A DNA stretch of 64,000 bases from a phage. The stretch lies in sequence record PZ386947.1, one strand, 5' to 3'. This document shows positions 17,735-58,202 of the stretch, piece after piece (the first letter of the stretch is position 1; each line of letters opens with the position of its first letter). The notes beneath the pieces are model-generated. The model was given only the letters and a program-made list of their open reading frames with translations. It ran no database searches and had not been told where the DNA came from. A program made the position numbers and the translations under genes.

Positions 17735-17757
17735 CAATTAATTAGTAATATAATCTG

Positions 17758-18666
17758 TTAAAGGTCATTCAAAAGGTCATCCAGGTCCGTGTCATCAGCA
17801 CTAGATGAACTGCCAGAGCTTGAGCTCATAAAATCATCTTCAGTTTTTGTTTTGAAGTCATCAACATTGAATGCATCCAAATCATCAGCAACTTTATCAG
17901 CTTTCTTAGCGGCAGTTGCAGCGGCACCACCCATTGCAGCAGTTCCCATAACTTGACTGAACTTAGTGCTCAGTTCTTCAAATGATTTGAATTTATCTTT
18001 AGAAGTCATTTCAGAAAGGTCAACCATTTGTTCGAACAGTTCTTTCTGGAAAGATTCATCGTCAATGTTTGGAATCGCAGATTGATTCAGGAATTTAGAT
18101 TCGTCGTAGTTACTAAAACCAGAAACTTGTTTAACTTTCAGTACAAAGTTAGCACCTTCCCACGGGCAAGTTACATCAACCGGAGTTTCACCCATTTCAA
18201 CATCAACTGCAATCATTGCATTGATTTTATCCCAGATTTTCTTACCGAAACGATATTTAAATACTTTACCTTCGTTTTCTGGAGCAGCTGGGTCTTTTAC
18301 AACAAGAATGTTAGCCCAGTAAGAAGTTTTACGTTTAACAAGACCGTACTCTTTATTGTCAGTGTTGTACAAATCATTTTTACTGATATACTGACATACT
18401 GGGCAAGAATCGTAATCACCGTGGGTAGATGAACAGTTTTCAATATACCATTTACCATTTTTCTTGAAACCGTGATTTACAAGAATTGCGAATGGTGCTT
18501 GTTCATCATTTTTAGACGGAAGAAAACGAATTACTGCTTGACCGTTACCCGCATTATCGAGTTTCAGTTTCCACTCGCCTTTATCTTCAGAAGAAAAACC
18601 ACCTTTATTTCCAGCCAGTTTAGCCATTTGTGCAGCGAGTTCAGCAGTAGATTTACGTTTAAACAT
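17758..18666 (-). CDS. 32: single-stranded DNA-binding protein gp32
   Basis: 302 aa; N-terminus [17 protein letters not shown] and zinc site [12 protein letters not shown] recognised as T4 gp32; acidic Ser/Asp-rich C-terminal tail. Confidence 0.9.
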
Positions 18667-30508: not shown

Positions 30509-30538
30509 TGTGAATAAATACCCTTAAAAGGAGGGTCT

Positions 30539-31195
30539 ATGGCAGCACCTAGAATATCATTTTCGCCCTCTGATATTCTATTTGGTGTTCTAGATCGCTT
30601 GTTCAAAGATAATGCTACCGGGAAAGTTCTTGCTTCCCGGGTAGCTGTCGTAATTCTTTTGTTTATAATGGCGATTGTTTGGTATAGGGGAGATAGTTTC
30701 TTTGAGTACTATAAGCAATCAAAGTATGAAACATACAGCGAAATTATTGAAAAGGAAAGAAATGCACGCTTTGAATCTGTCGCCCTGGAACAACTCCAGA
30801 TAGTTCATATATCATCTGAGGCAGACTTTAGTGCGGTATATTCTTTCCGCCCTAAAAACTTAAACTATTTTGTTGATATTATAGCATACGAAGGAAAATT
30901 ACCTTCAACAATAAGCGAAAAATCACTTGGAGGATATCCTGTTGATAAAACTATGGATGAATATGCAGTTCATTTAAATGGACGTCATTATTATTCCGAC
31001 TCAAAATTTGCTTTTTTACCAACTAAAAAGCCTACTCCCGAAATAAATTACATGTACAGTTGTCCATATTTCAATTTGGATAATATCTATGCTGGAACAA
31101 TAACCATGTACTGGTATAGAAATGATCATATAAGTAATGACCGCCTTGAATCAATATGTTCTCAGGCGGCCAGAATATTAGGAAGGGCTAAATAA
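30539..31195 (+). CDS. t: holin
   Basis: 218 aa; MAAPRISFSPSDILFGVLDRLFKDNATGKVLASRVAVVILLFIMAIVW recognised as T4 holin T, one TM helix plus large periplasmic domain. Confidence 0.9.
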   Translation: MAAPRISFSPSDILFGVLDRLFKDNATGKVLASRVAVVILLFIMAIVWYRGDSFFEYYKQSKYETYSEIIEKERNARFESVALEQLQIVHISSEADFSAVYSFRPKNLNYFVDIIAYEGKLPSTISEKSLGGYPVDKTMDEYAVHLNGRHYYSDSKFAFLPTKKPTPEINYMYSCPYFNLDNIYAGTITMYWYRNDHISNDRLESICSQAARILGRAK

Positions 31196-54969: not shown

Positions 54970-55215
54970 TTATTCACCAGTTACTTTCCACAAATCTTCG
55001 TTTGCAGTAATCCATTCAGTACGTTGATTTTCTTCATATACTGTAGAATATGCTGCTTTTTCTGAAGGGAATGTCTGGTAATGTGCACCAGAAATTTTGT
55101 GAACGTCAGAATAAAGAGGGAAAGCTACGGAAATTTCCTTTCCTTCAATTTTCTTATTTCCATCTAATTTCTGCTCAAATGTTTTGATATTAACATAACC
55201 ACGAGTACTAGCCAT
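54970..55215 (-). CDS. soc: small outer capsid protein Soc
   Basis: 81 aa; MASTRGYVNIKTFEQKLDGNKKIEGKEISVAFPLYSDVHKISGAHYQTFPSEKAAYSTVYEENQRTEWI... recognised as T4 Soc. Confidence 0.9.
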   Translation of the reverse strand: MASTRGYVNIKTFEQKLDGNKKIEGKEISVAFPLYSDVHKISGAHYQTFPSEKAAYSTVYEENQRTEWITANEDLWKVTGE

Positions 55216-55298: not shown

Positions 55299-55817
55299 TT
55301 AATAGCCTCGGTCTTGACGAGCGAAATTTTCAGCATTTTTCAGATAATAAAGTTTAAATATTTCTTCAGCTGACATTCCAAGAGCAATAAATTTATTCAT
55401 GAAAAAGTGAAATTGGTCAATCAGTTCAAATTTAATTTCAAGCTGATCTTCAGGAGATAAGTCTTGAATTTTCTTGGATTGCATTTCAGAATAACGTTTC
55501 TTCCAAGGTTTCCATACGGCAGAAGCTTCTTTTTCACCATTACTCATACCACCAAGAGAAGTATATAGTTCGCGAGTTTCATCTGCGATATAATCGTCTT
55601 GGTTTCGCAACCAAGCAAGAACTTCTCCTGCAGTTTCAAGTGAATCGGGATGACGATTTGTTTCTGGTTTATCATTAGCCAAACGAATCTGTAAATGCCG
55701 CTGCATATCAAGCATAACCTGCAGTGGGTCAATATTGTGCATAATATTCTCAGCATATGCACGATTTGCTTTATCAACACCTTCGATCAAATGAGCGCAT
55801 TCATTAAAGTGAGCCAT
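55299..55817 (-). CDS. 56: dCTP/dCDP pyrophosphatase (MazG-like)
   Basis: Track ORF trimmed to ATG at 55817 (MAHFNECAHLIEGVDKAN...), 172 aa (T4 gp56 about 171). Confidence 0.8.
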   Translation of the reverse strand: MAHFNECAHLIEGVDKANRAYAENIMHNIDPLQVMLDMQRHLQIRLANDKPETNRHPDSLETAGEVLAWLRNQDDYIADETRELYTSLGGMSNGEKEASAVWKPWKKRYSEMQSKKIQDLSPEDQLEIKFELIDQFHFFMNKFIALGMSAEEIFKLYYLKNAENFARQDRGY

Positions 55818-55888
55818 TATTTTTCCTTTCAATTCATGAGTTAGTAGATTAATTATACAATAAATATATAAAGCAATAAGGAGGACAT

Positions 55889-56089
55889 ATGGTACAAAAA
55901 TTAATGGCACTTGTTAATGCCATCAAAGGTAATAAAAAGCGTATAGCTTTTACTATTTCTGCTATGGTAGGAATTTTACTCTGGAACTTTATTCTATCAC
56001 CTGTTGCAATTGCACATGGTATTAATATTCCAGTAGTTACTCTTGATACATTCGTAGATCTAGCATTTGCTTTAGTTGGGTTAATTTAA
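55889..56089 (+). CDS. small membrane protein on the opposite strand (orphan)
   Basis: 66 aa with two hydrophobic helices; strong AAGGAGG Shine-Dalgarno 5 nt before ATG; lies in the 56-61 intergenic gap on the plus strand. Confidence 0.4.
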   Translation: MVQKLMALVNAIKGNKKRIAFTISAMVGILLWNFILSPVAIAHGINIPVVTLDTFVDLAFALVGLI

Positions 56090-57114
56090 ATCTTGGCATA
56101 TTTAGATAGCCGCATTTTAGCCATCAACCCCTGGGCAATATTATTTTTCATATATTCCATAATTTGTTCAGGGGTTGCACCTTCCTTTCTAATCATATCA
56201 TTAACATCTTTTGATTTCCAGGGAGATTTATCCCAAAACATAACCCTTTCTCCTGCATCAACTAATTTAGTCATTCGTTTGATAGTGTCAGGATGACGAG
56301 GTTCATTATCTAAAACCCACACACGTCTATCTTTAAATGGAACAACTTCTAGGTCTAATTGACCACCCGTAATAGCTATACCATTTTCAATAAAAAGTGA
56401 ATCTATAGGTCCTTCTAGAACATATACATCACCATTTTTAACTCGTTCGACTCCATAGATTTTTGTTGCCTCAGGATAAGCTTTGATAGTGATATATTTT
56501 TGAGGAGCATCTTTCTTTAATGCACGTCCTTGAAAAGACTCAGCTTTTCCATTAGCATTATAAATTGGAATAACAAGACGAGGCTCAGGTATTTCCTTTT
56601 TGTATGTTCCCGGTGCTATGCTATTAACTAATTTAGGCCATTCGGTTGTAAACCAAAGATATTTCCATTTATCCTTTGGAATACAACGAGCTTTTATATA
56701 TTTTATAATTGCATGGTCTTCCGCCAGTTTATCTAATCGAACACATGACGGAAGAGATTTAATTATTTTCTTCTCAGGTTGTTTAGGAAGTTCTTTAGGT
56801 TTTTCTACTGGACGACTTTTACCTTTTTCTTTTCTTATTTCAAAGATATACTCACGATATAAATCAGGTTCAAACTCCTTTAAATATATTCCGATTGGTG
56901 CATGATAGTTACAGTTATAACAATGAATATTTCCTTCATTATTATCACCATAATACCATCCACGAGCTTTATTCTGGTCGGTTTTTGAATCTCCACAAAC
57001 AGGACATCTAAACCGTAATTTAAAAGTTGAACTATTATTTACTTGTGTGAATTTAGGTAAATGAGCCAATGCACGATATGCAAACTCATTATCAATCCAA
57101 GGTATTGATGACAT
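56086..57114 (-). CDS. 61: DNA primase gp61
   Basis: 342 aa as in T4 gp61; N-terminal zinc-binding CPVCGDS...CYNC and TOPRIM core. Confidence 0.9.
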   Translation of the reverse strand: MSSIPWIDNEFAYRALAHLPKFTQVNNSSTFKLRFRCPVCGDSKTDQNKARGWYYGDNNEGNIHCYNCNYHAPIGIYLKEFEPDLYREYIFEIRKEKGKSRPVEKPKELPKQPEKKIIKSLPSCVRLDKLAEDHAIIKYIKARCIPKDKWKYLWFTTEWPKLVNSIAPGTYKKEIPEPRLVIPIYNANGKAESFQGRALKKDAPQKYITIKAYPEATKIYGVERVKNGDVYVLEGPIDSLFIENGIAITGGQLDLEVVPFKDRRVWVLDNEPRHPDTIKRMTKLVDAGERVMFWDKSPWKSKDVNDMIRKEGATPEQIMEYMKNNIAQGLMAKMRLSKYAKI

Positions 57115-57282: not shown

Positions 57283-57909
57283 TTAACCTCTATTCATAAA
57301 AGCATTAAAAATTTGGTCATCAATAGAAACATTTACTTTAGACTGTTTTTCTGATGGTAATTCATATCCACATATTACAATTTTGTGATCAATATCAAAA
57401 TACACAGAAGCAATATGATTAATGATGTTTTCAGTAAAGTCTAAATCAACATCAATATCTTTTTGACCACAGCCCAAAGGATAAATAATGCGAGTAATTC
57501 GATTATCTTTAACAAATATTCCACCGACATACTCTGTACTGCGTTTAAAGTCTACACGCCGACGAAATGAAAAATATTCAGGCTCTTTATGAGCTCGGCT
57601 CATAGGACACAACGAGTAACTAGAATAAGAGATGTCAAATCCTACGCCTTCGATATGAGCCAAAGTGTCATGATTAAACCAATTATAATCGTACGCCAAA
57701 TCCATTAGATTATAATATGTAAAAGGCACCGGATTAACATCATTAGTCACAAGCATGTAATTAGCAACTGCTATAATTTCATTGTTTTTAACGAATACAA
57801 ACCGTGATTGATGCGAATGACCTGGACCCGCGTTTTCACGATTAATGATATAACACTGGGCACCTTTATATTTGTATGTATCTTTGCATTTGTGCATTTG
57901 ATAGAGCAT
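57283..57909 (-). CDS. hypothetical protein at the T4 61.2 position (possible AdfA-like anti-DarT factor)
   Basis: 208 aa ORF between 61.1 and sp; identification is positional only and rests on my recollection that T4 61.2 is AdfA. Confidence 0.35.
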   Translation of the reverse strand: MLYQMHKCKDTYKYKGAQCYIINRENAGPGHSHQSRFVFVKNNEIIAVANYMLVTNDVNPVPFTYYNLMDLAYDYNWFNHDTLAHIEGVGFDISYSSYSLCPMSRAHKEPEYFSFRRRVDFKRSTEYVGGIFVKDNRITRIIYPLGCGQKDIDVDLDFTENIINHIASVYFDIDHKIVICGYELPSEKQSKVNVSIDDQIFNAFMNRG

Positions 57910-58202
57910 TATTCACCTACCACTTCAGCGATGATATTTTTGTTATTAAAGTTTTTATCGCAATACAGAACATAATTATACTGCATTACACCACCAGACT
58001 TAAGTTGTTTTTGCACTTCAGCTTTCATTTCAGGACGATCGCGCTCAACGATATTCATAATATCCGCTTCAATTTGAGTTTCAACCTCAGTCTGATCCGC
58101 AGTCATAGACCATTCACACAAATCTTTATCATAACCTGCCATAGCAGGCTGAGCAGCACAAGAAGCTAAAGCAAAAATTGTGGCAAAGATAAATTTTTTC
58201 AT
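57909..58202 (-). CDS. sp: Spackle periplasmic protein (superinfection exclusion / lysozyme inhibitor)
   Basis: 97 aa as in T4 Sp; cleavable signal peptide MKKFIFATIFALASCAAQPAMA. Confidence 0.8.
   Translation of the reverse strand: MKKFIFATIFALASCAAQPAMAGYDKDLCEWSMTADQTEVETQIEADIMNIVERDRPEMKAEVQKQLKSGGVMQYNYVLYCDKNFNNKNIIAEVVGE

Follow-up and report, generated by a model that had tools for sequence, protein, structure and literature searches.

The window analyzed here, that is, the whole 64-kb stretch of phage DNA, contains a short open reading frame (ORF) on the plus strand between the dCTPase gene 56 (55299-55817, minus strand) and the primase gene 61 (56086-57114, minus strand). This ORF extends over 55889..56089, starts with ATG, ends with TAA, and encodes a protein of 66 aa; the ATG at 55889 is the earliest start codon past the upstream in-frame stop. 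All annotated or credible neighbors, namely, soc (54970-55215), 56, 61, 61.1, 61.2, and the exclusion gene sp (57909-58202, 1.8 kb from the ORF), are located on the minus strand. An initial sequence-only reading had described a 66-aa plus-strand ORF filling the 56-61 gap amid minus-strand neighbors, and this arrangement was found exactly as described. The ORF and primase gene 61 converge, and their stop codons overlap by 4 nt in the sequence TTAA (56086-56089); a stop overlap of the same 4 nt is also annotated in T4T, moskry, IME540, CIP9, and UTK0003. On its other side, the ORF is separated from gene 56 by a spacer of 71 bp (55818-55888), which contains a putative MotA-type promoter. Searches with tblastn yielded no match to dam or to gene 69 (segF by its later name) anywhere in the window, in agreement with the earlier impression that both of these T4 genes are absent here.

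This region of the window is 100% identical to that of Shigella phage CM8 (MK962750), in which the ORF is annotated as a CDS for a hypothetical protein, CM8_00030. It is an orthologue of T4T dam.1 and of RB32ORF030w. The encoded protein has the same length of 66 aa as phage T4T dam.1 (ADJ39749), to which it is 98.5% identical, and it matches PHROG 2024 over its full length (E = 1.4e-31), a family labeled as being of unknown function; a profile search likewise placed it in the family (E about 1e-20), and the UniRef entry is named "Uncharacterized protein dam.1." With the ORF protein as the query, tblastn detected homologues in 697 phage records, and with a diverged Kanagawavirus homologue as the query, it detected them in 946. 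The ORF had initially been called an orphan, a term that is wrong given these 697 to 946 phage records and the membership in PHROG 2024. The gene is in fact already on record: CM8 and hundreds of further T-even genomes have it annotated as a conserved hypothetical one, and T4T has it under the name dam.1.

Nevertheless, annotation of the gene is uneven. In the T4 reference sequences NC_000866 and AF158101, the ORF is intact at 17738..17938 (plus strand), inside the 309-bp gap between dam and 61, without being annotated. The orthologous ORF of Edwardsiella phage PEi20 (1480-1665 of the extracted locus) is likewise intact and lacks annotation. T4 thus possesses both dam and the ORF, whereas CM8 has kept the ORF without dam and segF. 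Since T4 carries the ORF next to the primase gene in addition to dam, in a form that is 98.5% identical, and CM8 carries the ORF only, it is neither an orphan nor, as had also been proposed, the remnant of a replaced cassette. The sequence-only reading was therefore supported in part: the gene is real, and dam and segF are missing, but the gene is not an orphan and does not derive from a lost cassette. In the literature on dam.1, on ORF030w, on T4 ribosome profiling, and on T4 start-site mapping, we found nothing on this ORF; it is not mentioned in the main text of the CRISPRi-ART paper or in one section on HIDEN-SEQ, and no function is recorded for any family member.

Searches for more distant relatives remained within the family. 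A phmmer search of 1.8 billion representatives returned small phage proteins as the only relatives; three long repeat proteins that also scored were rejected as compositional or repeat artifacts (LLWNF/Y propeller repeats and SH3 repeats). Comparisons with Pfam, NCBIfam, and PDB sequence profiles and Foldseek comparisons with PDB and with BFVD, a library of predicted structures of viral proteins, gave family members or noise only. When all ORFs in the window were searched with the family profile, only the ORF itself matched, and no paralogue was found.

To what extent the ORF behaves as a gene can be judged from its variation. ORF length by itself is no better than chance here, and several spurious plus-strand ORFs of 65 to 101 aa lie antisense to neighboring genes in the window. 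We judged the ORF to be real because of its translation signals and its conservation, not because of its length. In a comparison of distinct sequences, 13 from Tequatrovirus and 8 from Mosigvirus, variation was concentrated at the third codon position, with 8, 3, and 14 variable sites at codon positions 1, 2, and 3 in Tequatrovirus and 7, 1, and 19 in Mosigvirus. The Nei-Gojobori dN/dS ratio in the ORF frame was 0.14 (Tequatrovirus) and 0.13 (Mosigvirus), the lowest value among the six frames; the next-lowest value belonged to the antisense frame that shares third positions with the ORF, as expected. These codon comparisons indicate that the ORF is under purifying selection and is a real gene. 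Across genera, protein identity drops to about 25%, while the frame, the length, and residues W32, N33, P38, A40, G44, P48, and G64 persist. The antisense frame itself is open over 78 codons (55852-56085, minus strand) in CM8, T4, and PEi20. Coding on that strand was rejected, as this frame lacks a start codon in CM8 and is interrupted by stops in VR7, Q7622, JEC, and UTK0003; its openness is probably a by-product of sense codon usage.

The position of the gene is as constant as its frame. The loci that we examined represent 8 of the 16 named genera of Tevenvirinae (Tequatro-, Mosig-, Gapriver-, Dhaka-, Kanagawa-, Jiaoda-, Moon-, and Gelderlandvirus), and in all eight, a family ORF of 61 to 74 codons lies on the opposite strand beside the 3' end of the primase gene. 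An alignment across T-even genomes had been suggested as a check on the ORF, and in every genus sampled, it confirmed conservation in frame and position. The ORF is always convergent with primase gene 61, on the side of the primase that faces gene 56, and the distance between the two is usually the 4-nt overlap, with up to 18 nt observed in Jiaodavirus. In contrast, what lies between gene 56 and the ORF differs from phage to phage: T4 has dam there, fPS-90 a homing endonuclease gene, Kanagawavirus a small MazG-like gene, and CM8 nothing. Judged by this comparison, this stretch appears to be a variable cargo slot beside an ORF that is itself fixed. Like its CM8 counterpart, T4T dam.1 overlaps the primase stop by 4 nt and is preceded by ATAAATA and AAGGAGG; the difference is that dam separates the ORF from gene 56 in T4, whereas in CM8 the promoter region of gene 56 immediately adjoins the ORF. 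In the three Straboviridae lineages examined outside Tevenvirinae (Krischvirus ECD7, Pseudotevenvirus IME-CF2, and the taxonomically unassigned Klebsiella phage Lychee_ER51), the distance between genes 61 and 56 is only 7 to 15 nt, with no such ORF between them. In these genomes, then, the dam.1 family appears specific to Tevenvirinae.

One locus deviates in copy number. Gaprivervirus VR7 carries two tandem diverged paralogues (1295-1492 and 1501-1770 of the locus), one belonging to the T4 type and the other to the Dhaka/Kanagawa type. The second of them is not annotated and runs 89 codons into the primase gene, which may reflect either a frameshift or a real extension.

The sequence upstream of the ORF contains recognizable signals for its expression. 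A Shine-Dalgarno sequence, AAGGAGG, is located at 55878..55884 on the plus strand, 4 nt 5' of the ATG; it had earlier been described as near perfect. This heptamer occurs at just two sites on both strands of the 64-kb window, the second of which precedes the holin gene t. Further upstream, 22 nt 5' of the ATG, we observed a late-promoter-like element, AATAAATA (55859..55866, plus strand), which is the A(-13) variant of TATAAATA. T4 late promoters consist of the 8-bp sequence TATAAATA and have no -35 element; 9 of 50 listed promoters have A at -13, making A(-13) the commonest natural variant of the T4 late promoter (PMC2988020), and A or T at this position is frequent in related phages (PMC2988020; PMC1524935). 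With transcription predicted to start near 55872-55874, the element at the ORF fits the pattern of T4 late promoters, in which such an element lies about 10 bp 5' of the start and is not accompanied by a -35 element. No sigma-70-like promoter was predicted upstream on the plus strand, and no plus-strand terminator was predicted after the ORF.

Both signals are conserved among the orthologues. The GGAGG Shine-Dalgarno core was present in 11 of 11 orthologues and is retained at the 13 loci in which this gene is the first one. Nine of 11 orthologous loci have an ATAAATA core 19 to 29 nt 5' of the ATG, and the remaining two have ATTAAATA. Given a background of 1.9e-4 per position, the binomial probability of this recurrence is about 5e-20, a value that is not corrected for shared ancestry. 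The base at -13 is A in CM8, G in the T4 version, and C in other genera, and the positions of ATAAATA and GGAGG are conserved despite diverged flanks and different upstream neighbors. Within the window, WATAAATA is rarer than expected (13 copies versus 22.8 from shuffles), which is consistent with avoidance of stray late promoters, and apart from the copy at the ORF, well-placed ones are found before soc, gp34, gp36, and holin t. The region upstream of t (30513-30541; ATG at 30539) contains the same AATAAATA followed by AAGGAGG 4 nt 5' of the ATG, as at 55859-55891.

The strand of the gene points in the same direction. T4 early and middle transcripts all have one polarity (counterclockwise), and only late transcripts run both ways (PMC2988020; PMC1524935). 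The strand of the ORF is opposite to that of all its early and middle neighbors, as is possible for late genes under this polarity rule, and late expression is therefore expected. Taking strand and promoter-like element together, we infer that the ORF is transcribed late.

Hydropathy and charge counts predict a transmembrane helix at codons 19 to 42 (55943..56014), and an AlphaFold2 model built with 33 family sequences (mean pLDDT, 72) has helices at residues 2 to 12, 16 to 42, and 52 to 62. The N-terminal flank of the transmembrane segment carries a charge of +5/0 (GNKKR), the C-terminal flank carries 0 to -2, and a positive N-terminal flank was found in 7 of 7 members tested. The protein is thus probably oriented N-in/C-out, as judged from hydropathy and the positive-inside rule only. 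The ORF had been credited with two hydrophobic helices, of which one, the segment at approximately residues 19 to 42, is a clear transmembrane candidate. The C-terminal helix (52 to 62) is above the hydropathy threshold in proteins of the Tequatrovirus and Mosigvirus type only and is charged across the family, with E, K, R, or H present elsewhere, and a location at the membrane interface appears more likely for it than a second span. The proposal of a genuine gene for a small membrane protein on the opposite strand can accordingly be upheld, with the membrane location being a prediction.

Conservation is highest at codons 32 to 53 (55982..56047), where alignments and column entropies define the block W32-N33-x4-P38-x-A40-x3-G44-x2-L47-P48-x-V-(T/P)-L-(D/E)53. 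W32, N33, and P38 are invariant, A40, G44, P48, and G64 are nearly so, and the family core motif W-N-x4-P-x-A-x3-G-x3-P is present in the window protein. This peak coincides with the outer-leaflet half of the predicted helix and the loop after it. An invariant Asn together with a small-xxx-small pair in a transmembrane helix suggests helix-helix association; conservation along one side of the helix was not significant (periodicity P = 0.27).

The same block can be read in another way. Residues 1 to 42 might form a long signal peptide that signal peptidase I cuts after A40-I-A42, in which case the active product would be a 24-residue periplasmic peptide, HGINIPVVTLDTFVDLAFALVGLI. The invariant P38, the nearly invariant A40, and the usually small residue at position 42 (A, T, or S) do resemble a Pro at -5 and an AXA site, and the conserved G44..L47-P48..(D/E)53 stretch would directly follow the supposed cleavage site. 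We compared the protein with the known features of signal peptidase I substrates, namely, a short n-region, an h-region of 7 to 15 residues, and small residues at -3 and -1. An n-region of 18 residues and a hydrophobic core of 19 to 24 residues are long for a cleaved signal, and 14 of 33 members have Thr at -1, which is unusual for this peptidase. Moreover, the invariant W32-N33 pair would fall within the supposed h-region, where it is not expected of a mere targeting signal. We thus regard a secreted-peptide precursor as unlikely.

Small membrane proteins of T-even phages with known roles offer several points of comparison. Like the ORF, holin gene t is located on the plus strand, is preceded by AATAAATA and by AAGGAGG 4 nt 5' of its ATG, and encodes a membrane protein (in the case of the ORF, a predicted one). 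However, holin T is a protein of 218 aa with a large periplasmic domain, and the family-profile search revealed no sequence relationship between the two. Of the features of holins in general, the ORF product has the predicted transmembrane domain, at least one of which is needed. Its C terminus (...DLAFALVGLI) has no K or R after the transmembrane segment and hence no holin-type charged tail. The gene does not lie in a lysis cassette but between dCTPase and primase, and no Pfam or NCBIfam holin model matched it. A single UniRef label "Holin," on the OE5505 homologue, has no visible support.

The SAR-domain antiholin RI is, like the ORF product, a small T4 envelope protein with an N-terminal hydrophobic helix, and there is a local resemblance between F-I-L-S-P-V-A-I-A in the ORF and F-V-L-S-P-S-I-E-A in RI. 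RI differs in having a 70-residue periplasmic domain, which the ORF product lacks. Kinship with RI was rejected after hhalign gave a probability of 0.3% and left the resembling stretch unaligned.

Imm and Sp are small T-even envelope proteins as well, and exclusion proteins such as these are early. This bears on the suggestion, already made when the ORF was first noticed, that it encodes a superinfection-exclusion or toxin-like membrane peptide, which would either block incoming phage DNA early in infection or depolarize the membrane. Several observations are in line with such a role: the product is small and hydrophobic, sp lies nearby on the other strand (57909-58202), and read-through on the minus strand would be antisense to the ORF, as in type I toxin systems. 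Unlike imm and sp, however, which are early, minus-strand genes, the ORF is on the strand reserved for late transcription and behind a late-type promoter element. The lack of a predicted sigma-70-like promoter upstream on the plus strand speaks against early expression, as do the conserved upstream element, which is of the late type, and the fact that T4 early and middle transcription is all of the opposite polarity (PMC2988020). The database comparisons with Pfam, NCBIfam, PDB, and BFVD gave no match outside the family. An exclusion or toxin role would fit the late-type signal and the strand polarity poorly, and we consider it quite improbable.

The DNA of the ORF also carries elements that are read on the minus strand. 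A putative MotA-type middle promoter for gene 56 can be read at 55852..55876, with TTGCTTTA at 55876-55869, an 11-nt spacer, and TATAAT at 55857-55852; the plus-strand late-promoter element falls inside this 11-nt spacer. The region aligns with the T4 region 5' of gene 56, where T4 records call the transcript the oriA primer. In addition, a terminator-like 11-bp hairpin followed by UUUUUG lies 3' of the primase gene at 55901..55926 (minus strand), within codons 5 to 13 of the ORF, with a folding energy of -12.4 kcal/mol (z = -3.5). The annotators of fPS-90 independently predicted both a middle promoter and a terminator at the equivalent places.

Farther along, within the 3' coding region of the primase gene, we noted a long inverted repeat, AACCCCTG...CAGGGGTT in its extended form (56125-56176; RNA z = -3.6). 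It is common to T4 and Kanagawavirus, was not found in Mosig-, Dhaka-, or Jiaodavirus, and may simply reflect TPEQ and QGL codons. A conserved RNA structure 3' of the ORF stop was rejected, since RNAalifold yielded no consensus structure and no covariation across nine genera.

These overlaps raise the possibility that the locus acts at the RNA or DNA level and that the peptide is incidental. A late clockwise transcript could be antisense to the primase mRNA, considering that the ORF converges on and overlaps the primase gene with no predicted plus-strand terminator. Alternatively, the minus-strand elements could be what matters, i.e., the middle promoter of gene 56 (the counterpart of the promoter of the T4 oriA primer transcript) and the post-primase terminator, which overlap the signals and the 5' end of the ORF. 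The hairpin, however, is limited to Tequatrovirus (the T4 version is weaker, and Mosig-, Gapriver-, Dhaka-, Kanagawa-, and Jiaodavirus have none) and was for this reason rejected as the cause of the conservation. The MotA box does not keep its place relative to the ATG from genus to genus, while ATAAATA and GGAGG do. Neither element thus explains conservation across the whole family. There was no Rfam match in 55600-56400, and the dN/dS ratio of 0.13 to 0.14 in the ORF frame argues for selection on the peptide, as does the persistence of an open frame of 61 to 74 codons with invariant residues in eight genera, down to about 25% identity. A function confined to the nucleic acid is therefore very improbable. 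Finally, the ORF might have arisen by chance in an AT-rich spacer without being a gene, and plus-strand ORFs of about this size that are spurious are indeed common in the window, but the comparative data on conservation, synteny, dN/dS, and signals effectively refute this reading.

We consider it likely that the locus contains a genuine, late-expressed gene for a small inner-membrane protein, the CM8 orthologue of the T4 dam.1 family. According to this model, the gp55-dependent late RNA polymerase would transcribe the ORF from the AATAAATA promoter, producing a leader of about 16 nt, and the consensus Shine-Dalgarno sequence would ensure efficient translation. The 66-aa product would then be a single-pass inner-membrane protein with its basic N terminus in the cytoplasm and a tail of approximately 24 residues at the periplasmic face. 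The invariant W-N...P-x-A-xxx-G...LP block, located in the juxtamembrane loop and in the half of the helix within the outer leaflet, would probably bind another membrane protein or the protein itself. As to what such a protein might do, we favor, with low confidence, an accessory function in late events at the envelope, e.g., in lysis timing or lysis inhibition, a guess that has the predicted late timing and membrane location and the expression signals shared with t as its sole grounds.

Several aspects of this gene make it worth recording. It is missing from the T4 reference annotation, it is present in all eight Tevenvirinae genera sampled, and its expression signals closely resemble those of the holin gene. 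Beyond the existing annotations as a hypothetical protein, the comparison adds evidence for purifying selection on the ORF and for late-type expression signals. Analyses that build on the T4 reference annotation will overlook the dam.1 ORF, and knockout work on it would be reasonable, as its product is predicted to be a late, strongly translated membrane protein of the T4 model system. A more far-reaching version of the late membrane protein reading, which we hold to be doubtful, is that dam.1 encodes an overlooked late inner-membrane factor common to Tevenvirinae, which would use the invariant W-N/A-xxx-G face of its helix to bind a component of lysis or lysis inhibition (holin T or its partners) or a membrane-bound component of morphogenesis. 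If this were true, even in T4, the best-studied phage, a gene with an effect on lysis timing or burst would still be awaiting annotation.
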